From Patescibacteria group bacterium (GTDB taxonomy: Bacteria; Patescibacteriota; Microgenomatia; UBA1400; PJMF01), in NCBI GenBank assembly GCA_049322575.1, contig JBMORQ010000003.1, positions 17,719-81,718 of the forward strand: a stretch of DNA of 64,000 nucleotides, in the 5' to 3' direction. The notes beneath the pieces are model-generated. The model saw nothing but the letters and a program-made list of their open reading frames with translations. It was not told the origin of the DNA and did not search any database. Of the stretch, positions 6,864-52,274 are shown in pieces (position 1 is the first letter of the stretch; each line of letters opens with the position of its first letter). The position numbers and the translations under genes are program-made.

Positions 6864-6864
6864 A

Positions 6865-34573: not shown

Positions 34574-35968
34574 CTATTGATTCATACCACTGGTTTTATC
34601 AGCGGCTTCTTTAACGTTTGCGGGTTTTTTTCTCGCTTCAACTTCTTCGATAAAAGCGTAGTTAATTAGACGTGATACCAATAGATCAAGAACAGCAACA
34701 ATCCAATACCATTTACACAGCCAAACCAGCAGCCAAAAACCTCCTGAGTAACAGTCACACTGGCGCAACCAGTAGAACAGGCCAATGGAAAGCAGGGCTA
34801 TGACCACAGCCACCCAGTGCTTTGTCTGAGTACGCTTCTTCTTGAAATAGTTGTCGAATAACATGGTCACTAATAGTTGCAGGATAAGTAGTATCCAAGG
34901 AACATAGAAACGCCAGCTCACACAAACTCCACTTGTGGCACCGGCTACCTCACCAGTTGGTTGAGAGGTTGGTTGCACCTGCGCTGATTGAGTCGATTCA
35001 TCGGTTGTTTCACCTAAAACTTGCCCGCCTTGACCAACTGGGCGAACGTCAGGCGCCAAGACCTGTCCAGATGTGATAGGAATTTCAGCACTATTAGACC
35101 TAGGGCCAGGAGCACAATCGTTAACTCCAAAAATCTGGAAAGAGTACGCTTGACCTGCTGAAAGCTGAGTAACTGTGTATGATGTAGTATTGCCAATATT
35201 GGTACTTCCGTATGATGCACCATCAGATATTCTAGTAAAAACTAGGGCATAGTGAGTCACTGGGCTGACTGACGTCCAGTTAAGGGTTACAGCATTCGGT
35301 CCGGCACCAGCTACACTCAAAGAAGGCGCGGAGGTAGGAACTTCTGCCTCACAAACAGGTGGCTTGGCTGGATCAGTGTTGGTGGAGCCGGGATTACCAC
35401 CAGGAGGATTCCCCGGATTGCCAGGATTTCCCGGGTTAGAGGGTCCATCACAAGTGATTCTGACAGCAAAATCAAAAACTGTCCGAGAACGTTGAAACTC
35501 GTTACCAGCTAAAATGTCAAAATTAGCATTCCAGGTAAAAACTCTTGTTGAATTGGGAGCCAGACTACCGAGTGAAATATTATCAGTGTCGTATAAGTCT
35601 TGGTATGAGCGATCGCTGGTGGCAACACCCGATATCTGTGTACCGAAATAATCTGTATTACCAGAATAAATGGCCGCAAACATTCTCTCAGCCAGGTTAA
35701 CCGAGCTTTCTGGGGTTGTGTCTGTGGCGTTGAGCAGCAGATTGCATGTTTCGTCACTATCATTATTGGTAATAGTTAATGTCTGAGTGAAATTGTCTCC
35801 AGGCATCATACCACTCTCATTGAATAGTGGAGTATCAGCTGGGGAAATACTACACGGACCATTGTTAGCACAAGTCACAGTTAAATCTGTGCCCGCCTCA
35901 GCTGAAACAACCAAGTTAAGAAAAAATGACAACGAAACTAGAAGTGATAAAAATATTTTTCTAATCAT
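34574..35968 (-). CDS. Cell-surface protein: signal peptide, TasA/camelysin-like N-domain, PGN-repeat linker, FN3 domain, Ser/Thr/Gln-rich stalk, and a C-terminal polytopic (three to four TM) Cys/Trp-rich membrane anchor
   Basis: 'LFNESGMMPGDNFTQTLTITNN' resembles the TasA-family 'kPGD...N.G' block. 'NPGNPGNPGNPPGGNPG' linker. An FN3-like 'VTLNWTSVSPVTHYALVF...YSFQIFGVND' region. Hydrophobic tail 'WILLILQLLVTMLF ... AVVIALLSIGLFYWL ... FWLLVWLCKWYWIVAVLDLLV'. Confidence 0.6.
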   Translation of the reverse strand: MIRKIFLSLLVSLSFFLNLVVSAEAGTDLTVTCANNGPCSISPADTPLFNESGMMPGDNFTQTLTITNNDSDETCNLLLNATDTTPESSVNLAERMFAAIYSGNTDYFGTQISGVATSDRSYQDLYDTDNISLGSLAPNSTRVFTWNANFDILAGNEFQRSRTVFDFAVRITCDGPSNPGNPGNPGNPPGGNPGSTNTDPAKPPVCEAEVPTSAPSLSVAGAGPNAVTLNWTSVSPVTHYALVFTRISDGASYGSTNIGNTTSYTVTQLSAGQAYSFQIFGVNDCAPGPRSNSAEIPITSGQVLAPDVRPVGQGGQVLGETTDESTQSAQVQPTSQPTGEVAGATSGVCVSWRFYVPWILLILQLLVTMLFDNYFKKKRTQTKHWVAVVIALLSIGLFYWLRQCDCYSGGFWLLVWLCKWYWIVAVLDLLVSRLINYAFIEEVEARKKPANVKEAADKTSGMNQ

Positions 35969-38900
35969 TCCATCCTCCAGTTAAACCTGTTTCCAGGAGT
36001 TTTTCGGCATTATCTTTATCCTGCAGCCTTAGTTGCAGCTTGATAGATGTAGCATCGATACCGCGGTGGGGAGTACACTCTCCGCCAGAGCAGGTACCAA
36101 AATATATGTCCTTAACCTCGACTGAATCACTATCTATATCAACTCCGCCGTTAATCACATCCACAACCTTCACTTGATTGTCGGCATCTACCACTGGATG
36201 CTCGTATTCAATATGATATAGACCGCGTTCAAAGCTTGACGCATTCTTAATCGACATCCAAGCCTTAAAAGGCTCCTGTTGTTGTAAAACCACCAAAGGA
36301 TCGGTGGCTGGCACTGGAGTCGGACTGATGGCAGGCATGGTCTGACCCTCAACTAGAGCAAGATTGGAAAGTTCCGACCATTTATGAGCAGAATCCATCG
36401 ATTTAAGTGCAAAATAGTAGGCTTTACCCGCCTCCAAACCTTTGACCAGAAGATCTTCTTGCTCTCCAGCAACTCTAGGAGCTAGACCCTCTGAACCCAG
36501 TGTTAAATTTGAAACCGCTGAAACTCGGCTGGCCGCAGACCAGTTGTCCTGAGTAATTGGTTGCTCAGAATATCGAATTTCATAGCGTAGAACGCTGGGA
36601 GCAAAGTTATCTGAGGGTGCTGTGAATGTCAGGCTATACTCGCCCTCTCCCTCATCATACGCCTTGAGATCGTTGATCGAGCTTGGTGCTTGATCATCCC
36701 ATGTGACGTAGATCGAATTCATCTTTCCTTTGGCTCCAGTACTGGCTACGGACCAGAAGTAAAGCATGTGGTCATCCGGCTCACCTTCAAGTGTGAAACC
36801 CACACCTGATTTGAGTGAGCCAGTTTTGATCTGACCATCCAGTAAATATCTGTAAGCTACTTCGCCGATGGTATCAGGATTGTCACTATAGATGGTAAAC
36901 AAAGCTCCACTGTCAACAACAGTCGCTGCAGTGTTGACGTCGTCCAAGTAGACGAGAGTGTTTTGCGATTGATCGCCTGTGTTACCTGCTTGTAGTTTAA
37001 GATTGAGCTGAGACGAGGCATCGTCGGCAACGTATATTGAAACATATTGCCAACCACTTGCCTGCCCAGATGCACCTGACAACGCCTGAAGTCTCGAAAG
37101 ATCTTTTGCCCAGACTTGGTATACCAGTTTGTCATTGATGTAGGCCGACAAGGCTGGTTCATCAAAGCCAGGATCAACTTCGCTCGTAACCATATTAAAC
37201 CAGAAACCAACCGAACGAAGTCCACGACCGGAATTATCAATATTCTGCGAAATGCTGTTCACACCTTGGCCAGAACCGTCTAAAACCGCCATAAAGGTAG
37301 CGCTACGTGGCTTAACTCCTGCCTGTCCGTTTTCAACCGCAGCAACCTGGCCCTGAGTGCCCCATGACTCTAATCCTTTGGAAAAATCGCCATTGTACAC
37401 TTTGTTTTGGATATCTTTTTCTGGACTGTTGGTTACGGTAATTGTCGAACCAGATGTGCTATCAATTGTGACAATAACTTGAGAAGTGGGAGAGGTGACT
37501 ACACTAGCATTGCCGGCTTCATCAACTGCTGAAAAGGAAATAGTGTACTCTCCGTCAGGTACACCCGTAGTGTCCCAGCTGTAAATTGTTTCGTTGTTGT
37601 AAGTGTTGGCTCCACCAGTCTGATCTGGGAAAGAAGGGACGGCGTTATTGCTTGCATCACGTGCCGTCAATAACCAAGAAGCCGGATTGGCATCAGATAA
37701 AGTAACGTAAAAGTCTATTGTTGCATTAGCTGCATAGCTATCGCCATCACTTGGGCTGTTAATAGCAGCTGCTGGCGCTAAAGTATCTAAAGTAATCTCA
37801 CAGTAATCACTCCAGGCACCTGGCCAATCAACTCCTGCATCAAAATTTCCATCATGATTATTATCCTCAAAGGCTCTAACTCTAGTATTCCACAAACCTT
37901 GAACGCCTGAACCCGAGCCAAATGAAGAGAATAGTGTGTAATTGTCTGTGGCATAGAAATAACCAATTGAACCAGAAGGGTAAGTTACTTCACGTTGATA
38001 GGCAATGTTTCGCCCAGAAACTGCAGACCAATTATGTGCGACTCTAGGCGCTGAAGTATTACCCGTGTTGGTTGTTGCGCCACAAGCTAGGTCGAGAGGC
38101 CTTTCATCGGGTGTGGTGGAAGACGGAGGGATGTTCCAGCCATCATTGGTTGGAGTTGCGGGCGTCCAGACAGAAGTAGATAAGCTACCGGCAATTAACT
38201 CAGTATCACTAAAGCCCTGATCGTAGGATTCAAAATTTGTCTGCCAGGCTTCAGTCACCATGTTAAAGTTACATGTCATGTTCTCAAGACTTGTATCAGC
38301 ATCCACAGGCAAACTCACCTCGTAGCTAAACCAATGCTCATCAGCCCCATAAAAACTGTTGGGGTAATAAGTATGACTATTGATGATGACCATGTCTGGG
38401 TCATGAGTGGGATTGTTGGTTACAAAATCATTAAAAGCACTCAAGGAACCACTGTATTTGAGATCGCTCTGGACGTTTGTTAGATCGCCTGGAGTGGCTG
38501 GTGCTGCAGTATGCCAGTTGTAGTGAACCTGAAGTTGTAGAGCGTCACAAAGAGCAGTGTCACTACCTGGCAAGATCGAGACGCGTGAAAGATATTTCAC
38601 ATTGAGAGAACCTAGTTTCTGCACGTAGATATCTCGAGAAACCACGTCTCCTGGCCAAAGACTGTTACTAATTGGACCAAAATCAGCTTGATCTGAGCGT
38701 AGTCCAATATCAAGAGTCGAAGCAGTAAAAACACTATTATAAGAAGTCTCGAGATCGGCAATTCCAGACAGTGTTGGCAGAGTTGTCGAGACCAAAATGA
38801 CTAAGGCAAAAAAACTAGTAACTTTGAGCCAGGTAATCGACCTCTTCTTCAAGAAGTCCACAAAATTTTTGATGGTGGTTAGATCATTCTTTATCTTCAT
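35961..38900 (-). CDS. 979-aa secreted multidomain protein with a SipW-cognate-type signal peptide, a TasA-like N-domain, Ig-like, CBM4/9-like and FN3-like domains
   Basis: The N-terminus 'IADLETSYNSVFTASTLDIGL' aligns position-for-position with the TasA-like 'FDDTEVSANNTFVAGQIDLEV' of the gene at 39596-40408. 'LWPGDVVSRDIYVQKLGSL' is a TasA block. 'NGDFSKGLESWGTQG' is a CBM_4_9-like start. Confidence 0.65.
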   Translation of the reverse strand: MKIKNDLTTIKNFVDFLKKRSITWLKVTSFFALVILVSTTLPTLSGIADLETSYNSVFTASTLDIGLRSDQADFGPISNSLWPGDVVSRDIYVQKLGSLNVKYLSRVSILPGSDTALCDALQLQVHYNWHTAAPATPGDLTNVQSDLKYSGSLSAFNDFVTNNPTHDPDMVIINSHTYYPNSFYGADEHWFSYEVSLPVDADTSLENMTCNFNMVTEAWQTNFESYDQGFSDTELIAGSLSTSVWTPATPTNDGWNIPPSSTTPDERPLDLACGATTNTGNTSAPRVAHNWSAVSGRNIAYQREVTYPSGSIGYFYATDNYTLFSSFGSGSGVQGLWNTRVRAFEDNNHDGNFDAGVDWPGAWSDYCEITLDTLAPAAAINSPSDGDSYAANATIDFYVTLSDANPASWLLTARDASNNAVPSFPDQTGGANTYNNETIYSWDTTGVPDGEYTISFSAVDEAGNASVVTSPTSQVIVTIDSTSGSTITVTNSPEKDIQNKVYNGDFSKGLESWGTQGQVAAVENGQAGVKPRSATFMAVLDGSGQGVNSISQNIDNSGRGLRSVGFWFNMVTSEVDPGFDEPALSAYINDKLVYQVWAKDLSRLQALSGASGQASGWQYVSIYVADDASSQLNLKLQAGNTGDQSQNTLVYLDDVNTAATVVDSGALFTIYSDNPDTIGEVAYRYLLDGQIKTGSLKSGVGFTLEGEPDDHMLYFWSVASTGAKGKMNSIYVTWDDQAPSSINDLKAYDEGEGEYSLTFTAPSDNFAPSVLRYEIRYSEQPITQDNWSAASRVSAVSNLTLGSEGLAPRVAGEQEDLLVKGLEAGKAYYFALKSMDSAHKWSELSNLALVEGQTMPAISPTPVPATDPLVVLQQQEPFKAWMSIKNASSFERGLYHIEYEHPVVDADNQVKVVDVINGGVDIDSDSVEVKDIYFGTCSGGECTPHRGIDATSIKLQLRLQDKDNAEKLLETGLTGGWND

Positions 38901-41380: not shown

Positions 41381-42357
41381 TGGATGTTTTTGCACCTCTT
41401 CAGGTTTTAGCTGATCGGGTAACTTACAACTTTCTAGGCATCACCCATGATAGTTATTTAGCCGGAGTAGTGAACTTCTGGATTTATGACGTAATTAAAA
41501 TCAGTCTACTGTTGATTGTCATCAACTATTTTATGGCGATCACACGGTATTATTTTCCAGTTGAAAAGGTTAGAGATTTGTTAGCAGAAAAAAAGTGGTA
41601 CGGAGTCAACTACTTTTTGGCAGCTTTACTGGGAGTTGTAACTCCTTTTTGTTCTTGTTCATCTATACCCTTGTTTGTTGGTTTTCTGTCTGCAGGTATA
41701 CCTTTGGGTGTTACCTTTGCTTTTCTGATTAGCTCGCCGCTAATAAACGAGTCATCGCTTTTTTTATTTCCCAGTGTTTTTGGAGTGAGAGCTACAGTTT
41801 TGTACAATCTTTTTGGCTTAGTTGTCGCCATGCTGGGCGGTTTTCTTATTCAGAAACTCAAGCTTGAAAAATATCTTCAACCCAATGTTTTGGTGTTCAC
41901 TGGCAAAAAACAATTACTTGAAAAGTATCAAGGCAAAAGCATTCCTTTTGCTGAAAAAATTAAGCTATGGACAAACGAAATGTGGCAGATTACAAAAAAG
42001 ATCTATCCGTACGTCTTAATTGGAGTAACACTCGGTGCCCTCATCCACGGTCTTATGCCAGAATCGATTATCAGCGACACTTTATCAATATCATCAGGAT
42101 GGAGTGTGCCTTTGGCAGTTGTACTGGGCGTACCTCTTTATGCTAATTCCGTAAGTATCATTCCTATAGTCGAGGCGCTGATAAACAAGGGGGTACCAAT
42201 GGGCACCGCTCTTGCATTTATGACAGCTACAGTTACTTTATCCATTCCAGAAGCACTCATGCTCAAAAAAATACTTAAATGGCAACTTTTAGCTTTCTTT
42301 TTCGGCATAACTATTATAGGTATTATCCTGATGGGTTACTTATTTAACCTTTTATAG
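41380..42357 (+). CDS. ArsP/DUF318-family permease
   Basis: About 8 TM helices with 'TPFCSCSSIPLFVGFL' (the TPFCSCS motif typical of the PF03773 permease family). It is co-transcribed with the small CxxC protein, as is commonly seen for this family. Confidence 0.65.
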   Translation: MDVFAPLQVLADRVTYNFLGITHDSYLAGVVNFWIYDVIKISLLLIVINYFMAITRYYFPVEKVRDLLAEKKWYGVNYFLAALLGVVTPFCSCSSIPLFVGFLSAGIPLGVTFAFLISSPLINESSLFLFPSVFGVRATVLYNLFGLVVAMLGGFLIQKLKLEKYLQPNVLVFTGKKQLLEKYQGKSIPFAEKIKLWTNEMWQITKKIYPYVLIGVTLGALIHGLMPESIISDTLSISSGWSVPLAVVLGVPLYANSVSIIPIVEALINKGVPMGTALAFMTATVTLSIPEALMLKKILKWQLLAFFFGITIIGIILMGYLFNLL

Positions 42358-43692
42358 TGTATTTTCCCTATTCAGAATATTTGCTGCCTTTTCACCTGAG
42401 TCTACCGCTCCCTCCATGGTTGCTAGATACTTCTGCTTTGTATAATCTCCAGCTAGAGTCAAACCAGGGAGAGAGGTCGCTTGAGGAGGCCTAAGTTTTT
42501 CAGATCCTGGGGACAACGAATAGAAATCTGCAGGATGTCGTATCACACGATAGTTTGTCATTGTCTTGAGATTAATGTTGATTTCTTTTGCATCTTCGAG
42601 GGCCTTTTCCAATATTTCTGAGTCTGACAGGTAAATTAGTTCGTCAGCTTTTGCCATAATTGCCGATAAACGTCCGGGTAGGTGTGTAAAAGTTGTTCGG
42701 GCTTGTTCTGCGTAAGAAGCCCACAAGGTATCGGGGCTGAAAACCACTCTGTCTGTGTTGGCAGATGGCTCAGATAACTCAAACTGAACAGTCACAGCTG
42801 GCATAGTTGGCAGAGCAAGTAATTCAGGGAAATGCCTTTTGAGTCCCGGTGTCTGGCGAATAATCGTTTTAGCTCCTGCCAGCGAAGCAGCCAGAATCAC
42901 TTCGTCAGCTACAATCTCTTCATAGCTGAGTCGAACACCTCTGACTTTTTTCCCATCAAAGAGTAGTTGGGTCACTTCACGTTCAGAATCAACTCGTCCC
43001 CCCTGCTTGGTAATGAAGTCAACGATTGGTTCAATCATTACTTCCGTCATACCGCCTCTAAATGCTCCAATCTTCAGTTGATGGATTCGTTTTAGATATG
43101 GTCCTATCGTGCCAAAAAAAACATAACTCGAATAACCCTCAGGAGGTAGAAAAAACAAACCCGTACTGAAGGGAGTTATTATCTTTTTAATGATGTCCTG
43201 ACTTAATCCTTCTCTTGTAGCAAATTCATATATGGAGACTTCGTCTAAAGAAGCAGGTGAAGAAAAGTACTCCTTAAGGCCCTTCACCATAAAATTTGAA
43301 AGAGCAAGTTTCTCGCTCGCTGAGAGAAAATCATTGTTGCCAAGTAATGAGCGTAATGTGTCAACAGGCTGACCTAGCGGAGACAAGGTTAAAATTTGAC
43401 TTGGGCCAGGGTTAGGCAATCTAATTTCAAGCTCATTGACCCATTGAACAACATCATCAACCTGCACCCCAACTTGGTGCAAAAGCCTAGGCAGAATCTC
43501 ATAAAATCCAAGAAAGCGATGTAAACCAGATTCGACAACCATGCCGTCTGCTTCCCATGAAGCAGTACGTCCCCCTATATATGGTTTCGCTTCAACGACA
43601 TGAATAAAAAAACCCTTTTTTATTAAATACACCGCAGCTGAGAGTCCGGCCAAACCCGCCCCAACAATGATTACTTTCTTTCGTCTAGTCAT
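42352..43692 (-). CDS. FAD-dependent oxidoreductase (amine-oxidase / phytoene-desaturase / HpnE-like fold)
   Basis: 'KKVIIVGAGLAGLSAAVYL...VVEAKPYIGGR' dinucleotide-binding motif. Start taken at MTRRKK (43692); the upstream 43 codons in the ORF track are translation of the MITE repeat. Confidence 0.7.
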   Translation of the reverse strand: MTRRKKVIIVGAGLAGLSAAVYLIKKGFFIHVVEAKPYIGGRTASWEADGMVVESGLHRFLGFYEILPRLLHQVGVQVDDVVQWVNELEIRLPNPGPSQILTLSPLGQPVDTLRSLLGNNDFLSASEKLALSNFMVKGLKEYFSSPASLDEVSIYEFATREGLSQDIIKKIITPFSTGLFFLPPEGYSSYVFFGTIGPYLKRIHQLKIGAFRGGMTEVMIEPIVDFITKQGGRVDSEREVTQLLFDGKKVRGVRLSYEEIVADEVILAASLAGAKTIIRQTPGLKRHFPELLALPTMPAVTVQFELSEPSANTDRVVFSPDTLWASYAEQARTTFTHLPGRLSAIMAKADELIYLSDSEILEKALEDAKEININLKTMTNYRVIRHPADFYSLSPGSEKLRPPQATSLPGLTLAGDYTKQKYLATMEGAVDSGEKAANILNRENTL

Positions 43693-43722
43693 AAGGCTAA
43701 CTGCACAACCTATTAATCGAAT

Positions 43723-43887
43723 TAGACTTGTAGCCAAATAAAACTTTGTAGTGAAAAAACTGATTTTTTTGAACGAAAAGGGTTTTTTTGAGTGAAGTAG
43801 TAGCATAGCTACTTCAAGCAAGAAAAAGAACCTTTGCAGTACTTAAAAGCAGTTTTGTAATAAAACTGTTATTTCACTACAAGTCTA
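43723..43887. repeat. MITE-like palindromic repeat, copy B (165 bp)
   Basis: Direct copy of 34352-34516 with about 3 substitutions. It ends 31 bp upstream of the oxidoreductase start codon. Confidence 0.8.
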
Positions 43888-44444: not shown

Positions 44445-44548
44445 CTTATCCTTTCTTCAACCCTTAGGGCTGTTTATTAACCTGCCACCTTGAGCACCTT
44501 GGCTGTTCGGTGGCAGGACATTTATTGATGTTGCTTGTCAGATCGGAA

Positions 44549-44929: not shown

Positions 44930-45402
44930 CTCCTTTCTATTATTTACTGAGCTGACTGCTATGTTTAACAGTAACTCGCAGCAACCTAAGTAGCTTAACT
45001 AAAGCTTGCTCTTAGTATGCCTGTGTCTTAGAGTGTCAGGTTTATGTGTGTCTTAAAGAAAAGGCGTGTAAAGATCGTGTAAGAGGATTAATCGATGTTT
45101 TTAATAGGCAACCTTGCCGATATTGACTGGCTGCCTAAACGAACTATTTAAAAATCGAATTTTCTAACGAAAAACTGATTTTTGTGAGAGAAGTCATTCT
45201 CGAACGCAGAAATGATAAGGCTACTAAGTTTGATCAAACGACCTTAGTATTAATAAAAAGTAGCTTTGTGCTGCTGCTCTCTACACATCCTTTACATCTG
45301 TTAAAAAGGCCTATATATCGCAAAATATACATATTTAATACACTAAAAATCACTTTGATAGGGTTGATAGATCTGGTAGAGCATGATAGTATCAACAAAC
45401 TT

Positions 45403-48219
45403 ATGACAAAAAAACTACTAACCCTCACTGGATTAGCAATTAGCAGCCTTGTGCTTGCCCCAAAGACCTATGCTGGCAACTTGCCAGGTTTTGTCGTCAA
45501 TCACGACAATGTTGAGGAAACAATCGAAAACGGCGACGGTACTCAACGTACACAGGAAATAATCCCTAGCACCTATTTAGATGCTGCACGAAATAGTGAT
45601 ATCTTATTCGGTCACCAATCTGTCGGTCGTGTCATTTCTTACGGCGATGACAACACCTCAAACGGAGGTTTAGATGACTTGGTGAGCATGTATACCAATG
45701 GTTCACGATATCAGATTAATATGGATGGCAATCAGCCAAATGGCCTCCCCGATACAGTTTCAGCAAACTGGTATGTGACAAATAATGGTGTGGGAGAAGT
45801 ATTAATTGGTGACAATTTTAATCCCGTTTCCAAAATGGAGCACTTTGTCAATCTACTAGCTAGATCAGATATTAATCAAAACGTCAAGCTTGCATTAATG
45901 AAGTTCTGCTACGTTGACTTCACTAATTACACCGCAGCACAGGTCTGGAATGAACTCCCCGTCAACGTGGGTAGTACTACTGTATACGGTTACCGCGGCA
46001 TGATGGAGTATCTGGAAACGACCTATCCCAACATCAATTTCGTTTGGGTCACAGCTCCTCTAACTAGATCTAATCCTATTAGTGGCTATGGCACCAATGC
46101 CAATCGTTATGACTACAACACTCTAGTCAGGAACTACACTGCAGCCAACAATAAGGTTTTGTTTGACATTGCAGATATTGAGTCCCACGATTTATCTGGC
46201 AACTATTGCTATAACGCAACTGAGCGTGAGTATGAGTGTGACGGTACCTTGGCAGAAAACTATGTCAATGGTACTGGTCATCCCAACACTTTAGGCGCTT
46301 CTCGACTATCTAGAGCATTCTGGTGGTTAATGGCACGCGCCTCAGGTTGGAACCCTGGCTCATCGAATTATTCGCCTGTTGCCAGTTTCACCAGTAGCGT
46401 CAACGCTGCCTTGGTCCCTGCCACAGTGAGTTTTGATGCCTCGGCTTCTAATGACCCAGATGGCAATATCGTTAGCTATAGCTGGAACTTTGGTGATGGT
46501 AGCACAGGCTCAGGTGTAACTACCAGCCACACCTACACCCAGGCTGGTACTTACCAAGTCACTCTAACAGTCACCGATAATGCAGGAGCAACCGGCACAG
46601 CTTCAACTACTCTAACCATAAGTAGCGAGAACTCTGGCACTGGCGCTTTTAACGAAATAGCTGGTCAAGTTTCAATCGAAGCCGAACATTATCATTCAAA
46701 CCAAGCAGCTTCCAATGGCTCTTGGTCTGAAACAACCACCGTTGCAGCCTTCTCTGGTGAGTCGTATTTGGTGACCCCAGACAATGGCTTATGGAGAAGC
46801 GAGTATCAACTAAATGACTCTCCAATGGTGAGTTACGAGGTTAATTTTAGCTCTCCAGGTACTTATTACCTCTGGGTTCGCACCAATAATCCAAGCAACA
46901 CCAGTGACTCTCTCTACTTCGGAATCGACGGTAGCAGAGTTGGAGCCATGGAATTAAGTAATCTCAACAACTGGGGATGGAGCAGAACGGTTCGCATGAG
47001 TTCTAGCCCTGCGTCTGTCACCATCGGCTCAGCCGGCACTCATTCCATCAATATTTGGATGAGGGAGGATGGAGCAACCGTTGACAAGGTCATCTTAACC
47101 ACCAATGCCTCCTATGTGCCATCAGGCTCTGGACTAGCCGAGAGCCCACGAGGAGAGGTCAATCAATTGCCAGTGGCATCGGCCACTGCTACCCCAACTT
47201 CAGGAAATATTCCACTTGAAGTTAGCTTTGATGCCTCGGCTTCTAATGACCCAGATGGCAATATCGTTAGCTATAGCTGGAACTTTGGTGATGGTAGCAC
47301 AGGCTCAGGTGTAACTACCAGCCACACCTACACCCAGGCAGGCAGTTTCACTGCCACCTTGACCGTCACCGATAACGACGGTGGCACCGCCAACCACACC
47401 ACTAGCATCACGGTGGTGGATCCAAATGCCAACAATCAGCCAACCGCCAGCTTCACCCAGGACAAAACCAGCGGTGTTGCACCTGTTGAAGTAAACTTTG
47501 ATGGCTCGGCTTCAACTGATTCTGATGGCACAATCACCGACTACTCTTGGAACTTTGGTGATGGCAATACAGGATCTGGCGTCACTACCAGCCACACCTA
47601 CACCCAGGCGGGGTCATATCAAGTCACCTTAACTGTGACTGATGATGACGGGGCAACCGCCACCGCAAATCTCACCATCACCGTGACTGTACCCAACGGC
47701 ACGGGGGCTTTTGTTGAGACGGCTGGCAATGTCTCTATGGAAGCTGAGCATTTCATGAGCAATGCCTCAACGACTATCGGAAGCTGGAATGCAGCCACTG
47801 CTCTTGCTTCTTATACCGGTGAGTCTTACATCACTACTACAGACAGCAATGTCTGGAGAAGCGAGTATCAACTAAATGACTCTCCAATGGTTAGCTATGA
47901 GATCAACTTCAGTACTCCTGGTACATATTACCTCTGGGTTCGTACCAACAATCCAAGCGGCACTAGCGATTCTGTCCACTTTGGTCTTAACAACGCTCGA
48001 GTTGGTACCATGGAACTGAGCAATGTCGGCAGCTGGGGTTGGAGCCGAACCCTTCGTATGAGTTCAAGCCCTGCTTCAATTACGGTGAGCAGTGCTGGCA
48101 CTCACACCTTCAATATCTGGATGAGAGAGGACGGAACCAACGTAGACAAGATTATCTTGACCACTAACGCCTCCTACACTCCAAGCGGTGAAGGAATAGC
48201 CGAGAGCAGCAGACAATAA
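45403..48219 (+). CDS. Large secreted protein: signal peptide, SGNH/GDSL-like hydrolase-like domain, PKD domain, CBM-like beta-sandwich, two PKD domains, and a second CBM-like beta-sandwich
   Basis: Signal 'MTKKLLTLTGLAISSLVLAPKTYAG'. 'ILFGHQSVG' (GDSx-like) and 'NGTGHPNTLG' (block-V-like). Three 'SFDASASNDPDGNIVSYSWNFGDGSTGSGVTTSHTYTQAG' PKD units. Two 'SEYQLNDSPMVSYE...YYLWVRTNNPS...WGWSRT' units of about 170 aa. Confidence 0.8.
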   Translation: MTKKLLTLTGLAISSLVLAPKTYAGNLPGFVVNHDNVEETIENGDGTQRTQEIIPSTYLDAARNSDILFGHQSVGRVISYGDDNTSNGGLDDLVSMYTNGSRYQINMDGNQPNGLPDTVSANWYVTNNGVGEVLIGDNFNPVSKMEHFVNLLARSDINQNVKLALMKFCYVDFTNYTAAQVWNELPVNVGSTTVYGYRGMMEYLETTYPNINFVWVTAPLTRSNPISGYGTNANRYDYNTLVRNYTAANNKVLFDIADIESHDLSGNYCYNATEREYECDGTLAENYVNGTGHPNTLGASRLSRAFWWLMARASGWNPGSSNYSPVASFTSSVNAALVPATVSFDASASNDPDGNIVSYSWNFGDGSTGSGVTTSHTYTQAGTYQVTLTVTDNAGATGTASTTLTISSENSGTGAFNEIAGQVSIEAEHYHSNQAASNGSWSETTTVAAFSGESYLVTPDNGLWRSEYQLNDSPMVSYEVNFSSPGTYYLWVRTNNPSNTSDSLYFGIDGSRVGAMELSNLNNWGWSRTVRMSSSPASVTIGSAGTHSINIWMREDGATVDKVILTTNASYVPSGSGLAESPRGEVNQLPVASATATPTSGNIPLEVSFDASASNDPDGNIVSYSWNFGDGSTGSGVTTSHTYTQAGSFTATLTVTDNDGGTANHTTSITVVDPNANNQPTASFTQDKTSGVAPVEVNFDGSASTDSDGTITDYSWNFGDGNTGSGVTTSHTYTQAGSYQVTLTVTDDDGATATANLTITVTVPNGTGAFVETAGNVSMEAEHFMSNASTTIGSWNAATALASYTGESYITTTDSNVWRSEYQLNDSPMVSYEINFSTPGTYYLWVRTNNPSGTSDSVHFGLNNARVGTMELSNVGSWGWSRTLRMSSSPASITVSSAGTHTFNIWMREDGTNVDKIILTTNASYTPSGEGIAESSRQ
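46432..47339 (+). repeat. Intragenic direct repeats: a 113-bp perfect DNA repeat (46432-46544 and 47227-47339) encoding identical PKD-domain cores. Together with the duplicated CBM-like module (about 46640-47150 and 47700-48210), this indicates recent internal duplication.
   Basis: Identical nucleotide strings 'TTTGATGCCTCGGCTTCTAATGACCCAGATGGCAATATCGTTAGCTATAGCTGG...' are seen at both positions. Confidence 0.75.
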
Positions 48220-48242
48220 TCAAAAAATAAATTGATATTAAA

Positions 48243-48285
48243 CCAGCCTATTGTCGGTTCATAACTGACAGGGCTGGTTTTTTTG
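48243..48285 (+). terminator. Rho-independent terminator after the PKD-protein gene
   Basis: CCAGCC..TGTC / GACAGGGCTGG stem followed by a TTTTTTT run. Confidence 0.65.
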
Positions 48286-48343
48286 TGGCTTTTTCCCATT
48301 TACAAAGCTTTCTTGATCTGGATTAATCCTATAATAATAAGGA

Positions 48344-50746
48344 TTGACATGTGTATTAGATGAGTTACAATTGCTTTTTACATATTTGATGTGTATCGAT
48401 ATGTTAAACACAATTGAACGTATAACTAAAAGAAATCGAGGAATTAGATCATTCCGCAGGAGTGGCGCAGAGCGACCAAACCCCGATGTTTCTTCTGGCA
48501 CGCTTGCTGCATACCTTTTGCTAGAATTTTTAAGTCGAGAGACTGCCAATAAATCAACTATTCCCTCAGTCGATAAGACCATCACCTCAATTGAACAGCA
48601 GTTAAATACTCTCGAGATTGAGATACCAGAAGCACTAGATATTGATGGTTCAAACGAACTTGCTTATCATTATTTAAGAACTTTGAAGGTCGCTCAATAC
48701 CTTGACGGAGGTCTAGACACTAGAAACACCCCATCTCAAATTTATACCACAGCCACCAGGCTAAATTTGGAACAACAATTAGCTAATCTCCCAGATGGCG
48801 TGGCTAATGCTTTCACTAACCCCGCATTTATTCTTAGACAAGAACTTGCCTCGATGGGTTTACATGGATTTGATATTTATTGTGATGCAATTATTAACGG
48901 CCCACTTGTTTCAAACGCAACTGAAACCAGAATTTTACATAAGATCAGAGAAGCCAATCCTGAGTTAATAGGTAAGGAGTTAAATAGACTCTCAAAATTG
49001 ATTAAGAAACTGTCATTGTTAACCTATGACGCTGGCTCCACCACTGGCAACAGCATTCACCAGGACTCTCAAACCTTCTCAAATCTAGAAAAATGGACCA
49101 TGTTTTTACAACGACTTGAGCGTATTGAAAACGAAAACCAAAGAAGAATAGCGGCCAGAATAGTCATGGAAACTGTCCGTCAACAAACAGCCCTAACTCG
49201 AGCCGATGGCCTGGGCTTGGCGTTTGATTCAGTATTTGGTATTTCAGGTACACACTTTATGTATTTCATGGTAAATGGCGACCAAGAAGGTGTGTTGTGT
49301 CAACCTGCCGCCTCGGGAAGTACTGTGGGGGATGCTGCTAGAGGGAAAAAATTAGGTGGTGGTGTTGGTAGCTGCGCAAATTTACCAGAAAACAAAAATC
49401 CCTGCACCAAGGTCGATGTCACGATCGTACCCAGCCGTAAAGAAGATGGTTCCGCGCTGAGTTTTGAGGAATACCGTTTCCTGCAAATTAAATCGCTTGT
49501 TGAGGGTCTGGAAAAAAGCTTGAAAATTTCTGAGACCACCAATAATCCACCTCAGTTTAGCCATCTAGTTGCCATTCCACCCAAGTGTGGCTTGGTTTAT
49601 AAACAAGCTGAAGAGCTTTTAAATAGCTTTGACCTAAACTATCTTTTAGAGAGCTCAACATTAACAAACAAAGCACAAAAAGCGATAATTACAAAGTTTT
49701 TAGAGAAGCAAGGCAAATTCTTATTGATCATCGATGCTGCTCAAGAGCGTTGGCTGGTAGATCCAGCTAAAGTTTTGCAATTGTTTGAAAATAAAGGTAT
49801 TGCCACTGTCTGGATGAGCACTCTTTCTAAGTCAATCGGAGCCGCAAAGTTGGCCGGTCTTTTTTACTTTAATTCACAGGCCACTGAGTTGGTTGCTGAA
49901 AGAATTTCTAGGGCTACTAGAGAAGAAATTCTCAACATAATTCGTTATTATGCTGTTGGTTTCTTGAGCCCAGCACTTGAGCAAGCTGTAATGCAAAGAA
50001 TCGAGACACTGAATGCACAGCCCAATGCTGAGAAAATACCCACAGAATTAGCTATCAACTTCAACCAAGCAGCCAAAGTTCTGGCCTCCACAGAAACATT
50101 AGCGGAGTTTAGAGCTGCCAATAAACACGACATAGACCAAGAAGGTGAACTTCAAGCAAGTATTAACTGGTTAAGGAACATTACCTCCGCCAGCATTAAG
50201 GATCATCTCCAGATCAAATTAGTTGATGACCAAGATGCTTCACCCTCAATGATTCAATCATTTCTCATTAAGGATTTGCTTGGTGAGCCATTCAGCTCTA
50301 CCATGTTAAAAAGACTGAGAGTGATGCTCCGAACCGGCGTTGCTTTTAATGAAAATAGTAGCAAGCTAGAATTTTTTGCTACCAAAACATTTTGTGGCAA
50401 CCCATTTGATGACATTACTGCCACACCCAAGAGAGATGAAAACGGTAATTTGCTAGACGTTGCCATCAACAAAACCAAACACGTACCTTTCTTAAGGTTT
50501 GGACCTAGAGCCGAGCTGATCATGACCATAAGCAAATTGTTAAACGAAAAACAGAGACTGGAAGCTATTGAACAAAAAACTGAGGATGACTTGGTTCAGC
50601 TCAATGCTGCTCAAACTCAACTAATAATCATCGAAAAGTTATGGCAAGAAAATATTGATCGATTGAGAAATGTCGTTGAATATTATCATCTGCTTGCAAC
50701 AAAGCTTTATCAGGATGGAACATCTAATAGACTTGTAGTGAAATAG
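48344..50746 (+). CDS. Large orphan protein (up to 800 aa), predicted soluble and alpha-helical, no recognisable domain. The true start may be an internal Met.
   Basis: A long uninterrupted ORF with balanced composition, no signal peptide or TM, no Walker or nuclease motifs. Its stop codon TAG (50744-50746) lies inside MITE copy C. Confidence 0.55.
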   Translation: MTCVLDELQLLFTYLMCIDMLNTIERITKRNRGIRSFRRSGAERPNPDVSSGTLAAYLLLEFLSRETANKSTIPSVDKTITSIEQQLNTLEIEIPEALDIDGSNELAYHYLRTLKVAQYLDGGLDTRNTPSQIYTTATRLNLEQQLANLPDGVANAFTNPAFILRQELASMGLHGFDIYCDAIINGPLVSNATETRILHKIREANPELIGKELNRLSKLIKKLSLLTYDAGSTTGNSIHQDSQTFSNLEKWTMFLQRLERIENENQRRIAARIVMETVRQQTALTRADGLGLAFDSVFGISGTHFMYFMVNGDQEGVLCQPAASGSTVGDAARGKKLGGGVGSCANLPENKNPCTKVDVTIVPSRKEDGSALSFEEYRFLQIKSLVEGLEKSLKISETTNNPPQFSHLVAIPPKCGLVYKQAEELLNSFDLNYLLESSTLTNKAQKAIITKFLEKQGKFLLIIDAAQERWLVDPAKVLQLFENKGIATVWMSTLSKSIGAAKLAGLFYFNSQATELVAERISRATREEILNIIRYYAVGFLSPALEQAVMQRIETLNAQPNAEKIPTELAINFNQAAKVLASTETLAEFRAANKHDIDQEGELQASINWLRNITSASIKDHLQIKLVDDQDASPSMIQSFLIKDLLGEPFSSTMLKRLRVMLRTGVAFNENSSKLEFFATKTFCGNPFDDITATPKRDENGNLLDVAINKTKHVPFLRFGPRAELIMTISKLLNEKQRLEAIEQKTEDDLVQLNAAQTQLIIIEKLWQENIDRLRNVVEYYHLLATKLYQDGTSNRLVVK

Positions 50747-50783
50747 CATTTTTATTACAAAATTTTATTTCGCTACAAGTCTA
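50728..50783. repeat. Minimal MITE-like copy C (56 bp): the two TIRs joined by a short AT-rich spacer
   Basis: TAGACTTGTAGTGAAATA...TATTTCGCTACAAGTCTA. The TIR variants (GTG on the left, GCG on the right) are swapped relative to copies A and B. Confidence 0.7.
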
Positions 50784-50784
50784 A

Positions 50785-51564
50785 TTAACTATCTGGGTAA
50801 CGCAACATCACTTGAATCATACGAATTGTAGTCAGAGCGTCGAGTGCTTCGGCTAAATTATCAACACAAATGTGGGCTAGAGATATTAGTCCTTCATCGG
50901 GTTTTTCTGGATTAATAATGGCAATAGCTAACCCAGCAGCTTTGAAAACTTCGTAATCGTTTGGCCCATCGCCAATTACCAGACAGTTATCAAAATCAAC
51001 GCCTGCCAAACCCGCTCTTGATCTACCCTGACTCAATTCTTCAAGAAAAACGCTAAGCTGCTCATGCTTCCGAGCTGCTTGATCTGGAAAATAATCGAAA
51101 CTGACCAGTTCGCCTGTTCGCTTATCCCAATTAAATCTGGCATTAGCTAAATACCTGGAAACCCCCAGAGTACCTGCAAATACTTTGGCAAACTCTTCCA
51201 ATGAGCCTGTTAAGATACAACAAACAACTCCCCAATCATTTAAAAAATGAACTAGCTCTTTGGCCCACTCTTTCGGCTTAAGCTGTTCAAATATTTCCTC
51301 TGCCTTCTCTTCGGAAATACCTAAGCCGTTCCATAAATCAACCCAAATCTTCATTGCTTGATCAAAAGTCATCTCATTTTTAGCAAAAGAGGAATAGGCA
51401 GCAAGATGAATAGCAACATTTGATTCAATTTTGTCGGGATCAGACAATCCCTCTGTCAGCTCAACCCAAGAGTTTCCTTCGTACAGCGTGCCATCTACAT
51501 CAAGAATGGCAGCGTAAATGCTTGGTAAAAAAGAATCTAATGACCTTCCACCTCTTCTAATCAT
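50785..51564 (-). CDS. HAD-superfamily hydrolase (HAD-IB / phosphoserine-phosphatase-like)
   Basis: 'AAILDVDGTLYEG' motif I, and 'VIGDGPNDYEVFKAAGLAIA' motif III/IV. Confidence 0.7.
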   Translation of the reverse strand: MIRRGGRSLDSFLPSIYAAILDVDGTLYEGNSWVELTEGLSDPDKIESNVAIHLAAYSSFAKNEMTFDQAMKIWVDLWNGLGISEEKAEEIFEQLKPKEWAKELVHFLNDWGVVCCILTGSLEEFAKVFAGTLGVSRYLANARFNWDKRTGELVSFDYFPDQAARKHEQLSVFLEELSQGRSRAGLAGVDFDNCLVIGDGPNDYEVFKAAGLAIAIINPEKPDEGLISLAHICVDNLAEALDALTTIRMIQVMLRYPDS

Positions 51565-51663
51565 CCGACGAGTATATCACCAGAGTAATAATTCAAAATA
51601 TGTCGATATTACGCACCTTTTTCGATTCATGCTCCACCGTTGGACTATAAGCATCGTCAAACC

Positions 51664-51693
51664 AAAAACCCCGGCACTCGGCCGGGGTTTTCT
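51664..51693. terminator. GC-rich hairpin (CCCCGGC / GCCGGGG) flanked by an A-run and a T-run. Intrinsic terminator for the minus-strand RRM gene; possibly bidirectional.
   Basis: Sequence AAAAACCCCGGCACTCGGCCGGGGTTTTCT lies directly downstream (minus sense) of the stop at 51710. Confidence 0.6.
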
Positions 51694-51709
51694 ATTTGTG
51701 TTAAGACAA

Positions 51710-52099
51710 TTAACGATCGTTGTTACGACCGTAGCCTCGATTTCTGTCGCCACCAAAGTCACGACGTCCACCGCCAAAACCACCACGGCTGAATGATCCG
51801 CCACGGCTGTTGTTGTCACGTGGAGCACGAGGTCGAGCGACGTTAACGATTAGTTTACGACCACTCATCTCGGTTTCGTTGAGAGCCAAAGCGGCCTGAG
51901 CTGCTGATTCCTCGACGAAACGAACAAAAGCAATACCACGAGAACGACCGGTCATACGATCGGTAACGACTTTGACTTCTTCAATCTCACCGAATTGAGA
52001 AAACAGGTCATTGAGTTCAGCGTCGGTTGTGCTGTATGGCAAATTGCCGACAAATAATTTTTTTGGATCGGCTTGTGCCGACTCATCTTGACTATACAT
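51710..52099 (-). CDS. RRM-domain RNA-binding protein with a Gly/Arg-rich (RGG-type) C-terminal tail
   Basis: RNP-2 'KLFVGNLPYSTT' and RNP-1 'RGIAFVRF'. Tail 'GGSFSRGGFGGGRRDFGGDRNRGYGRNN'. A GGAGG RBS lies upstream of the ATG at 52099. Confidence 0.75.
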   Translation of the reverse strand: MYSQDESAQADPKKLFVGNLPYSTTDAELNDLFSQFGEIEEVKVVTDRMTGRSRGIAFVRFVEESAAQAALALNETEMSGRKLIVNVARPRAPRDNNSRGGSFSRGGFGGGRRDFGGDRNRGYGRNNDR

Positions 52100-52274
52100 A
52101 TAGTCTCTCCCTCCGCAATTACTAAAACTTCTGCAGCGGAGCATGCATTTAGGCTGAGAACGATTCAGAAACGAGGGAAAAAGACCGACGAAGAAAAGTT
52201 CACTAGACCAGGTCTAATTATAGCAGATTTTTACAATAAATCATGACTAGTTGTTGTAAGTGTATTTGTGGTAA

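Follow-up and report, generated by a model that had tools for sequence, protein, structure and literature searches.

A divergent, enlarged protein family of Patescibacteria with a predicted fold-type I PLP-enzyme core

The PLP fold-type I superfamily is among the best-sampled enzyme superfamilies. [quoted passage not shown] The described systems closest to the protein presented here are the α-oxoamine synthases (AOS; AONS/BioF, KBL, SPT, ALAS and SphA; PF00155) and the class V aminotransferases and desulfurases (IscS, NifS, SufS, CsdA and DndA; PF00266). Within the 64,000-nucleotide stretch of Patescibacteria DNA analysed in this work (the window), we describe a gene for a 781-amino acid protein, which is probably a fold-type I (aspartate-aminotransferase-like) PLP enzyme of the cytoplasm, about double the usual size, extremely divergent and the founder of a very small family. 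This apparently domain-less CPR orphan could be placed in a catalytic superfamily only via structure prediction on a six-sequence alignment.

Gene structure and surroundings

The reading frame from 48344 to 50746 on the + strand was found to be unbroken, as reported in the initial annotation, and comprises 800 codons when counted from a TTG. That TTG had been taken as the start; however, it forms the opening bases of the −35 box of a sigma-70-type promoter-like site, which by its sequence may act as the promoter of the gene. Translation likely starts at ATG 48401, from which the product is identical to the NCBI-annotated 781-amino acid protein, with ATG 48389 as a second candidate start. The extent of the open frame stands, whereas the length of 800 amino acids probably does not. 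As had also been described, composition is ordinary (GC content of 40.8% versus 42.1% for the window), and a Kyte-Doolittle scan with a 19-residue window, for which the highest mean was 1.18, revealed no hydrophobic stretch qualifying as a signal peptide or transmembrane segment. A motif scan found no Walker A, HExxH, CxxC or GxSxG motif, in keeping with the earlier view that nucleotide-binding and nuclease motifs are absent. Searches of Pfam, NCBIfam, PADLOC and PDB sequences returned 0 matches; for the PDB, neither phmmer nor hmmsearch with the full family profile produced a match, and the core block gave random weak matches only. The statement that the protein has no recognizable domains is correct as far as sequence methods go, but the predicted structure tells otherwise, since Foldseek retrieves fold-type I PLP enzymes (see below).

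The upstream neighbor encodes a 1011-amino acid product with three PKD domains (Pfam). At its end lies an intrinsic-terminator-like hairpin, which none of 200 shuffles matched in folding and which a terminator scan lists at the same site, bearing out the earlier description of a terminator-separated gene. The copy of the family gene in the window is monocistronic with its own putative promoter. As terminator and promoter both intervene, and none of the homolog loci checked has a PKD neighbor, the position next to the PKD gene seems to be a coincidence. The segment of about 7 kb is flanked by copies of a MITE-like palindromic element, as previously noted, and this element recurs in the window (8 matches versus 0.33 expected). 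The downstream copy, whose hairpin has a ΔG of −26.7 kcal/mol and a z score of −8.5, supplies the last six codons of the 781-amino acid gene (N then RLVVK) together with its TAG stop, and abuts the stop codon of a convergent HAD gene.

Table 1. Coordinates of the gene, its flanking elements, predicted domains and candidate residues (window numbering)
Feature	Position	Strand	Basis
CDS, 781-aa protein	48401..50746	+	ATG start; 100% identity full length to annotated MAG protein
Sigma-70-type promoter-like site, TTGACA-16 nt-TACAAT	48344..48371	+	11/12 consensus match; best in 44000-52500
Intrinsic-terminator-like hairpin + U-run, end of PKD gene	48240..48287	+	ΔG −23.9 kcal/mol, z −4.87
Full-length 165-bp MITE-like copy, upstream boundary of segment	43723..43887	.	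Alignment, inverted repeat
56-bp internally deleted MITE-like palindrome, downstream side of segment	50728..50783	.	Inverted repeat; alignment to 165-bp copies
N-terminal extension, mostly helical, aa 1-270	48401..49210	+	AF2 model; alignment
Predicted large PLP-binding domain, aa 271-540	49211..50020	+	AF2 model, seven-stranded α/β core
Predicted C-terminal small domain + long terminal helix pair, aa 541-781	50021..50743	+	AF2 model
S282-G283-T284, invariant Gly-rich loop, strand-to-helix N-terminus	49244..49252	+	Alignment + model
D445-A-A-Q448, C-terminal end of strand 439-446	49733..49744	+	D445, Q448 invariant
T474-L-S476-K477	49820..49831	+	T474, S476, K477 invariant
R699, invariant, strand then helix like IscS R354	50495-50497	+	Alignment + model

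Relatives and the CysH-like partner

An exhaustive HMMER search over 1.84 billion representatives (~15 billion proteins) returned five related clusters only, so that the protein, initially called an orphan, is nearly but not strictly one. All five relatives come from MAG contigs that are low in GC and of Patescibacteria/CPR type, and this very small family is so far confined to such contigs. A GTDB scan gave just the four members already found and a scan of metagenome contigs added none; phage and plasmid searches likewise yielded no relatives, and the possibility that the gene is phage or plasmid cargo was dropped. The relatives align full length and collinearly, with 24–43% identity and 52 invariant columns in the six-sequence alignment, and fall into two subclades that are ~25% identical to one another; the two closest relatives of the 781-amino acid protein share 41–43% identity with it. 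Because this end-to-end alignment contains zero frameshifts, the gene is intact and a pseudogene, an outcome considered in the initial annotation, was ruled out. Nor was there any clear match to a housekeeping family, the other outcome considered there.

Apart from the gene itself, nothing in the window is syntenic with the homolog loci, and the five independent homolog loci have no common neighbor save a CysH-like gene or domain in one syntenic pair (L001 and L006). Downstream genes in the distant subclade differ, being a YibE_F membrane protein, a 410-amino acid protein, or none; the 410-amino acid gene overlaps that of the relative P0007 by 4 bp, and for its product neither Pfam nor NCBIfam gave a match, nor the PDB a meaningful one.

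For the closest relatives, the CysH-like partner was analyzed by comparison with domain models. In P0002, a PAPS_reduct domain is fused at the C-terminal end (31 bits; cutoff 22.5), and its best NCBIfam matches were end-to-end CysH models (1.8e-18 and 8.3e-21). At L006, the CysH-like domain is instead a separate gene 3 bp downstream of the gene for P0003; it is 54% identical to the P0002 domain and it, too, matches CysH models end to end. Both retain CC-X82-CxxC and ECG[LM]H, including the catalytic C-terminal cysteine; a CC-X~80-CxxC pattern together with the C-terminal ECG[LM]H cysteine is the hallmark of Fe-S APS reductases (PMC1175818). With scores of 67–75 bits, the partners fall well short of the equivalog cutoff of 154, so that these domains constitute a divergent CysH subfamily. 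L001 and L006 are mutually syntenic and so represent one lineage only; no CysH-like or Sat/CysC partner was found in the 64-kb window, and no CysH-like partner downstream in the distant subclade. We found no literature on CysH fused to a PLP-fold enzyme. Fusion or adjacency to a domain resembling APS reductases, which produce sulfite, suggests sulfite-linked chemistry in the two closest relatives.

Predicted structure and putative catalytic residues

AlphaFold was unusable from the single sequence (pLDDT 36.8). With the six-sequence family alignment (the 781-amino acid protein and five relatives) as input, the AF2 model reached a pTM of 0.65 and a mean pLDDT of 65, with two of the five models down to 50–54 and a core mostly at 70–90. 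It contains 52% helix and 12% strand, so that the earlier prediction of a largely helical protein is half correct: the core is a seven-stranded α/β domain (strands 276–280, 298–302, 339–343, 385–392, 439–446, 468–474 and 486–490). The N-terminal extension, which has no counterpart in typical ~400-amino acid PLP enzymes, is homologous in both subclades and includes the invariant T214-T215 of an STTGNS motif, with pLDDT below 50 at residues 1–53, 80–168 and 211–222. The C-terminal domain comprises β-strands within 605–700 plus helices, the terminal helices 728–770, and the invariant residues H694 and R699. The large-domain/small-domain layout of fold-type I is accordingly present in the predicted model (strands 276–490, then β-plus-helix 600–770).

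Foldseek comparison of this model with the PDB, a check that had been proposed in the initial annotation, gave 362 matches at E ≤ 1e-3. The 50 listed were all fold-type I PLP enzymes (SphA, SPT, AONS, ALAS, class V aminotransferases, CsdA, MppP, HisC, C-S lyase and group II decarboxylases), each with a probability of 1.00 and target-normalized TM scores of 0.40–0.58. The rmsd values were large (8–19 Å) and query-normalized TM was ~0.3, the latter because half of the protein falls outside the canonical fold.

Candidate catalytic residues were assigned from the alignment and the model. The invariant S282-G283-T284 may form the PLP-phosphate binding loop, by analogy with fold-type I topology (PMC9309667, Box 1), and K477 is the putative Schiff-base lysine, with D445 as the presumed pyridine-N1 aspartate and Q448 as the presumed PLP O3′ ligand. 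K477 lies in a loop right after strand 468–474 and before the hydrophobic strand 486–490 (GLFYF), pLDDT being below 50 for the loop in the AF2 model; the SGT loop precedes it, in the order known for fold-type I. D445 stands 32 residues before K477, a separation that fits the 20–50 residues from the lysine expected of a fold-type I aspartate. In all modes of unsupervised MAFFT alignment, D445 and Q448 co-aligned with IscS D180/Q183 and with Kbl D210/H213; K477 aligned exactly with Kbl K244 in three of three modes, and with IscS K206 exactly in one mode and off by one in two. With column-permuted controls, the catalytic columns were co-aligned together in 0 of 40 cases for IscS and 0 of 40 for Kbl. 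R699 might serve as the arginine that in fold-type I enzymes binds the substrate α-carboxylate from the small domain, although MAFFT did not co-align it with IscS R354 in a test that, with controls at 5 of 40, is without power.

For profile–profile comparison, class V and AOS reference profiles were built from plasmid and E. coli records; a search for IscS homologs had given only orthologs of at least 89% identity, too uniform for a profile. Comparison of the family with either profile by hhalign, full-length or as the core block, was never significant (probabilities of 0.4% for class V and 3–9% for AOS). Comparison with the single IscS sequence was also non-significant; over all these comparisons the probabilities ranged from 0.15 to 9%, and the forced global mode gave nonsensical alignments. 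The only local match to the AOS profile was the D...K block, which was in register at non-significant E values of 0.015 and 0.0035. As these profile–profile statistics are non-significant, it is the predicted structure and the positions of the residues that carry the PLP assignment.

Such statistics, together with the six-sequence input, the mean pLDDT of 65, the two poorer models and the useless single-sequence model (pLDDT 37), are also what would be seen if the fold were an artefact of AlphaFold on a shallow alignment and the protein truly novel and mostly helical. We regard this as unlikely, given that the 50 Foldseek matches listed agree on one fold at a probability of 1.00, with 362 matches at E ≤ 1e-3 overall, that co-alignment of D, Q and K with two reference families is model-independent and was not reproduced by permuted controls of either, and that the motif order (Gly-rich loop, Asp, Lys 32 residues on, hydrophobic strand) was read from the alignment before a usable model was available. 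A genuine PLP-type fold might nevertheless lack catalysis, as in a pseudoenzyme, scaffold or ligand sensor with its real function in the N- and C-terminal additions; MocR/GabR regulators carry aminotransferase-like domains. Consistent with this, about half of the protein (residues 1–270 and helices 728–770) lies outside the canonical fold yet is conserved in both subclades, the usual phosphate- and carboxylate-binding arginines were not identified, and genomic contexts differ among loci. The Lys, Asp, O3′ ligand position and Gly-rich loop are, however, invariant across subclades at ~25% identity, the pattern expected of retained catalysis; Pfam and NCBIfam detect no DNA-binding or other known module, and fusion to a catalytic CysH-like domain suits a metabolic enzyme better. 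A non-catalytic role is thus unlikely.

Two further readings are highly improbable. The gene adjoins the PKD-repeat gene in a MITE-flanked segment and has a very narrow phylogenetic range and a variable neighborhood, as accessory genes often do, which would suit an effector, toxin or host-interaction protein, the candidates named in the initial annotation, that an episymbiont secretes or injects and that is functionally linked to the PKD surface protein. This reading was not borne out: the protein has no signal peptide or transmembrane segment, matches no toxin or defense system (PADLOC, Pfam), has no phage or plasmid relative, and is predicted to have the fold of a metabolic enzyme. A terminator-like hairpin and a separate promoter-like site stand between the gene and the PKD gene, no homolog locus shares that neighbor, and the search for a small immunity-like partner, which had been put forward as a check, showed none conserved in the five independent homolog loci. 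The resemblance of the D-A-x-Q ... S-x-x-K motifs to class V enzymes, the fused or adjacent PAPS_reduct-superfamily domain in the closest relatives and the presence of CsdA among the Foldseek matches listed would fit a cysteine-desulfurase-type sulfur mobilizer (IscS, NifS, DndA) feeding a PP-loop/PAPS-reductase-like partner, as in DNA phosphorothioation by DndA-DndC or in tRNA thiolation. The family has no conserved cysteine, though, and is therefore not a cysteine desulfurase: the column aligned to IscS C328, the residue that forms the persulfide, is occupied by hydrophobic residues (F, L, W, I or V), and the classical enzyme was rejected because none of the six cysteines of the 781-amino acid protein (P0001) is conserved. 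A DndA/DndC-like pair was rejected too, as the partner is CysH-like; its substantial NCBIfam matches are to end-to-end CysH sulfonucleotide-reductase models only, and the families listed include neither a DndC nor a tRNA-thiolase model. The hhalign comparison with class V, moreover, does not rise above noise.

Proposed activity and comparison with described enzymes

A novel enzyme family was one of the options offered in the initial annotation, and it is the one favored by the fold match, by the invariant Asp, Gln and Lys at catalytic positions and by the failure of any family model to detect the protein. In a divergent fold-type I PLP enzyme of this kind, PLP would be held on K477 as an internal aldimine, with D445 touching the pyridine nitrogen, Q448 touching O3′ and the phosphate bound by the S282-G283-T284 loop together with T474 and S476; an amino-acid-like substrate would then displace K477 to form the external aldimine. 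Enzymes of this fold type are obligate dimers that have their active site at the interface. Because a CysH-like domain is fused or immediately following there, we guess that in the CysH-linked lineage of closest relatives a PLP-catalyzed replacement may consume sulfite, or the thiosulfonate intermediate of the reductase, to give cysteate or a similar sulfonated amino acid. The window copy might work with a partner encoded elsewhere or perform the PLP half-reaction alone. The cysteate synthases known so far belong to fold-type II, and we know of no fold-type I precedent for the proposed sulfite chemistry.

That this lineage-restricted PLP family and the Fe-S APS reductase together transfer sulfite or a Cys-thiosulfonate onto a PLP-bound amino-acid intermediate, yielding sulfonated amino acids or organosulfonates, is a speculative proposal that we consider doubtful. 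If true, ultra-small episymbionts, which are otherwise thought to be without sulfur assimilation, would have a fold-type I route to these compounds that has not been described before, and the fused P0002 would be a channelled two-step sulfonate synthase. The metabolism of such organisms is mostly inferred from missing pathways, and the APS-reductase-like fusion and adjacency provide a concrete and cheap biochemical hypothesis on sulfur chemistry, with K477, D445 and Q448 as candidate residues for mutation. Should the sulfite hypothesis fail, the protein would be another divergent PLP enzyme, of annotation value and unsurprising.

Among fold-type I enzymes, the basic-amino-acid decarboxylases of the LdcI/AdiA/SpeC type, which combine an N-terminal wing domain with an OKR_DC_1 core, are similar in size (700–790 amino acids). 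The 781-amino acid protein has no OKR_DC_1 Pfam match, however, no such decarboxylase is among the 50 Foldseek matches listed, and the S-x-H-K lysine motif of that type is replaced by T-x-S-K, without the histidine. Class V aminotransferases and desulfurases share the same fold, with 3f0h, 2dr1, 3kgx, 3isl and 4lw4 among the matches listed, as well as an identical D-A-x-Q and a lysine 26–32 residues on after an S-x-x-K-type motif. By contrast, no invariant residue of the family aligned with the ring-stacking His104, nor any with R354 (for which the mapping is unreliable), PF00266 gave no match and the hhalign probability was below 1%.

The α-oxoamine synthases provided the best Foldseek matches (SphA 9ds0 at 1e-7, and also SPT, AONS and HemA). 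Their D...K blocks are in register with the family (LVlDcAQ...MSTxSKxxG..GG in the family versus vDDaH...GTlgKa.G..GG in AOS), with about the same Asp–Lys spacing and a hydrophobic strand after the lysine in both. The His213 column, invariant in AOS, is Gln in six of six family members, which thus lack D-x-x-H; PF00155 gave no match, hhalign remained non-significant at 3–9%, and there is no acyl-CoA-related context. The 781-amino acid protein is also about twice as long, with its N-terminal helical region of ~270 amino acids and extra C-terminal helices. It is most likely a member of a new, enlarged family inside a known enzyme superfamily, and because no profile detects this family, which has about double the usual length and is confined to a handful of genomes, it extends the sequence space of a superfamily that is otherwise well sampled.

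Gene boundaries and the element at the 3′ end

The unbroken ORF reported in the initial annotation was confirmed on the + strand (see table). The best promoter-like site of the region (TTGACA-16 nt-TACAAT, 11/12) has the TTG at 48344 as its first base, so ATG 48401 (MLNTI...) is the likely start, with ATG 48389 as an alternative. The resulting 781-aa protein, P0001, has an exact counterpart at NCBI, annotated "MAG: hypothetical protein [Patescibacteria group bacterium]" and encoded on a 123,950-bp contig. The upstream PKD gene is closed by a strong hairpin and U-run (dG −23.9 kcal/mol, z −4.9), the separating terminator noted at the outset, which together with the promoter-like site argues for monocistronic transcription of the target from a promoter of its own. 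The ordinary composition and the lack of a signal peptide or TM segment also stood: GC is 40.8% versus 42.1% for the window, pI is 6.4, and the top 19-residue Kyte–Doolittle mean is 1.18. Walker A, HExxH, CxxC and GxSxG motifs were all absent.

The PKD gene itself has a GC of 47%, above the 42% of the window, carries long internal DNA repeats (173–209 nt, 74–88% identity), and its product matches the NCBIfam model "CPR pilus RbmA-like protein PamR" weakly (52.7 bits; cutoff 300). Flanked by a signal-peptidase-like gene and an fn3-domain gene, with a camelysin-like (M73) gene close by, the 979-aa ORF may belong to a cluster of surface or pilus type. RRM proteins, of which the window encodes one, are uncommon in most bacteria.

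Coordinates of features in the window and, where a locus is named, in homolog loci
Feature	Position	Strand	Remarks
Target, open frame	48344..50746	+	
PKD gene, upstream	45184..48219	+	three PKD domains and a GH115_C-like domain
HAD-IB hydrolase gene, downstream	50785..51564	-	convergent; Pfam and NCBIfam
MITE-like element, 165-bp copy	34352-34516		near-identical to 43723-43887 copy
MITE-like element, 165-bp copy	43723-43887		near-identical to 34352-34516 copy
MITE-like element, 56-bp internal-deletion derivative	50728-50783		near-perfect hairpin, dG −26.7 kcal/mol, z −8.5
MITE-like single half-sites	near 29548-29565 and 19370-19387		
Amine-oxidase/FAD ORF	42352..43821	-	listed TTG start (43821) within 43723-43887 MITE-like copy
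979-aa ORF	35961..38900	-	no Pfam match at E ≤ 1e-3
537-aa ORF	6802..8415	+	no Pfam match at E ≤ 1e-5
433-aa ORF	9206..10507	+	no Pfam match at E ≤ 1e-5
476-aa ORF	15984..17414	-	no Pfam match at E ≤ 1e-5
RRM-type RNA-binding protein gene	51710..52144	-	PF00076, 86 bits
Terminator-like hairpin, after RRM gene	51665-51691		strong
410-aa gene, L004	9518-10750		overlaps P0007 3′ end by 4 bp
410-aa gene, L005	2553-3785		overlaps P0007 3′ end by 4 bp
Fused PUA_2/ATP-sulfurylase/APS-kinase gene, L003	15094-16824		2.7 kb downstream of P0008, beside TGT gene

A palindromic MITE-like element, with termini of the form GACTTGTAG[YR]AAATA preceded by TA, has eight half-sites in the window against 0.33 expected by chance. 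Its ends, GACTTGTAG and CTACAAGTC, are flanked by TA, which suggests a target-site duplication, as in IS630/Tc1-mariner-type elements. The last six target codons (N-R-L-V-V-K) and the TAG stop sit within the 56-bp remnant. If TA is the target-site duplication, the pre-insertion protein would have ended in ...GTSNN, with its stop overlapping that of the convergent HAD gene, so that insertion would have altered only the extreme C terminus. P0001 ends where its relative P0003 ends, and the possibility that the target is a pseudogene was therefore rejected. "MITE-bounded" is correct as a description of the segment, but no evidence was found for a foreign origin, and the element is absent from all homolog loci. 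The amine-oxidase/FAD ORF probably starts downstream of its MITE-like copy, because its Pfam domains start only near residue 48; the element would then lie in the promoter/5′ region of that gene.

A rare family and the putative CysH-like partner of its closest members

P0001 itself was the only match in a word-indexed search of 5.8 billion clusters, in keeping with its description as an orphan, but five relatives emerged when 1.84 billion 50%-identity representatives were scanned exhaustively with HMMER: P0002 (1124 aa, 41% identity to P0001, E 1.6e-128), P0003 (580 aa, cut by the contig end, 43%, E 9.0e-125), P0004 (725 aa, 27%, E 8.0e-34), P0005 (704 aa, 29%, E 5.8e-29) and P0006 (794 aa, 28%, E 5.3e-28). 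In its 90% cluster, each stands alone or with one other sequence. Pattern scans found only four loci in 185,579 species-representative genomes and no family members in JGI metagenome contigs; plasmid and phage collections gave no family match. Named sources were "Patescibacteria group", "Candidatus Saccharibacteria" and two TPA MAGs labelled "uncultured Pseudomonadales" (loci L001/L007, CAZYBC010000003.1, and L004/L009, CAZPFY010000007.1). The GC of these loci (35.5% and 41%) makes the latter label doubtful, and the title looks wrong. Their gene content, including an FeFe-hydrogenase and many small unknown ORFs, is also unlike that of Pseudomonadales.

The neighboring genes of the homolog loci, which the initial annotation proposed checking for partners, include none in common with the window. 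The loci of the two closest relatives, L001 (P0002) and L006 (P0003), are mutually syntenic. P0002 has a C-terminal extension of ∼330 aa that exceeds the Pfam PAPS_reduct threshold (31.1 bits versus 22.5); in L006 a PAPS_reduct-type domain is encoded by a separate 369-aa gene, 3 bp past the P0003 stop, whose product shares 54% identity with the fused domain. The best NCBIfam matches of both were end-to-end CysH (APS/PAPS reductase) models (E 1.8e-18 and 8.3e-21), with scores well under the equivalog cutoffs. Both keep CC-X82-CxxC and the C-terminal ECG[LM]H. The CC...CxxC-type [4Fe-4S] motif characterizes bacterial APS reductases, not PAPS reductases, and the Cys of the ECG[LM]H-type motif is the essential nucleophile forming the enzyme–thiosulfonate intermediate (PMC1175818). 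By its domain matches, P0002 is a putative Rosetta-stone fusion tying a PLP-fold protein to sulfite production, in one lineage only.

In the distant subclade, a YibE_F membrane protein gene lies 3 nt past P0004. The overlap between the genes for P0007, a further member, and a 410-aa product suggests translational coupling; for this product, Pfam and NCBIfam gave no match and PDB no meaningful one, and it may be a lineage-specific partner in place of the CysH-like domain. P0008, another distant member, has no co-directional gene downstream, and the ATP-sulfurylase/APS-kinase gene of its locus hints again, though more weakly, at a sulfate-activation context, here in the other subclade. No CysH-like or Sat/CysC homolog was found in the 64-kb window, nor was a paper on a PLP-fold enzyme coupled to CysH found in the literature.

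Predicted fold and catalytic residues

The six-sequence alignment (A1) has 52 invariant columns, among them S/N-T-T-G-N-S (T214, T215) in the N-terminal part, S282-G283-T284-H285, P393-x-K395-x-G397, D445-x-A447-Q448-x-R450-W451, M472-x-T474-x-S476-K477, G486, H694 and R699-x-G701. The order Gly-rich loop, D-A-x-Q, S-x-x-K was likened to fold-type I PLP enzymes before any usable model was available. AlphaFold on the single sequence was useless (pLDDT 37); with A1 as the MSA, pTM was 0.65 and mean pLDDT 65 (core 70–90). This model has seven β-strands alternating with helices (residues 276–490), a β-plus-helix C-terminal domain (600–770) and ∼270 helical, mostly low-confidence N-terminal residues. 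At 52% helix it bears out the "largely helical" prediction in part, but that prediction missed the seven-stranded core (12% strand overall).

Sequence searches of Pfam, NCBIfam, PADLOC and PDB were empty, as the claim of no recognizable domains implied, but the Foldseek comparison proposed at the outset gave 894 PDB matches, 362 at E ≤ 1e-3, and the best 50 were all fold-type I PLP enzymes. The matches listed include α-oxoamine synthases (AOS; SphA, SPT, AONS, ALAS), class V aminotransferases, CsdA, MppP/RohP/Plu4, HisC, one C-S lyase and group II decarboxylases (best E 1.1e-7, probability 1.00, target-normalized TM 0.40–0.58, sequence identity 8–13%). SphA belongs to the AONS family and acts in sphingofungin biosynthesis (PMC13351049).

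Fold type I comprises a seven-stranded large domain and a small 3–4-stranded C-terminal domain; its Schiff-base Lys comes after a Gly-rich region in the sequence and precedes a hydrophobic strand, and 20–50 residues separate this Lys from an invariant Asp (PMC9309667, Box 1). The model places S282-G283-T284 after a strand and before a helix N terminus, D445 at the C-terminal end of strand 439–446, and K477, 32 residues on, in the loop past strand 468–474, with strand GLFYF (486–490) following.

The family core was aligned, by unsupervised MAFFT in three modes, with class V references (IscS, 404/404 identical to PDB 1P3W, plus ten plasmid-borne homologs at 23–68% identity) and AOS references (E. 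coli Kbl, BioF and nine plasmid homologs). Against class V, D445 and Q448 met IscS D180 and Q183 in 3/3 modes, and K477 met K206 in one mode and missed it by one residue in two. Against AOS, D445, Q448 and K477 met Kbl D210, H213 and K244 exactly in 3/3. Column-permuted controls brought the catalytic columns together in 0/40 cases in each test (singly in 1–2/40), and a reversed control in the class V test also failed. hhalign was non-significant for the family and core block against class V (probability 0.4% and 0.25%) and AOS (E 0.015, 3%; E 0.0035, 9%), the sole local AOS match being the D...K block or Lys motif in correct register; the core block drew only random weak matches from PDB with hmmsearch. 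Predicted structure and catalytic-residue positions support membership of the fold-type I superfamily; sequence statistics do not.

Proposed activity and relation to known enzymes

P0001 is probably an active PLP enzyme in which K477 would form the Schiff base, D445 contact N1 and Q448 O3′, and S282–T284 with T474/S476 hold the phosphate; the substrate would be amino-acid-like. R699 is only a candidate for the carboxylate-binding Arg, the blind alignment giving no mapping. The N-terminal 270 residues and terminal helices possibly serve oligomerization or partner docking. That the fold is a model artefact would fit the non-significant profile comparisons, but is unlikely given the Foldseek matches and the permuted controls. 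Slightly less likely still is a non-catalytic PLP-fold protein, a reading favored by the lack of a mapped carboxylate-binding Arg but opposed by the invariance of K477 and D445.

The initial suggestion of an effector, toxin or novel enzyme family survives in its last part, as a new PLP-fold family by model and residue positions. A secreted effector or toxin is highly improbable, and no signal-peptide-like stretch is present. Equally remote is a desulfurase-type sulfur relay, which the class V-like motif and CysH-like partner might evoke; A1 contains no conserved Cys, and a classical cysteine desulfurase is excluded for that reason. For the P0002/P0003 lineage, a tentative, low-confidence proposal is a β- or γ-replacement that yields a sulfonated amino acid by capturing either sulfite or the thiosulfonate of CysH. 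The partner of the window copy may be elsewhere in the genome or lost; the MITE remnant, at the spot where L006 has its partner gene, is suggestive but proves nothing.

Interest lies in a very rare, unannotated PLP-fold family whose link to sulfur chemistry in CPR-type bacteria is concrete and testable. P0001 is neither a toxin nor a categorically new system, and resembles fold-type I PLP enzymes in predicted structure and mode of action. By its Lys motif (T-L-S-K-S-I-G...G) P0001 comes closest to AOS, which have His as the O3′ ligand whereas the family has Gln; by its D-A-A-Q motif it comes closest to class V enzymes, whose desulfurases have a catalytic Cys that the family lacks. Since P0001 lacks a defining feature of each and both profiles are blind to it, placement is at superfamily level only, as a predicted new, enlarged family within fold type I.
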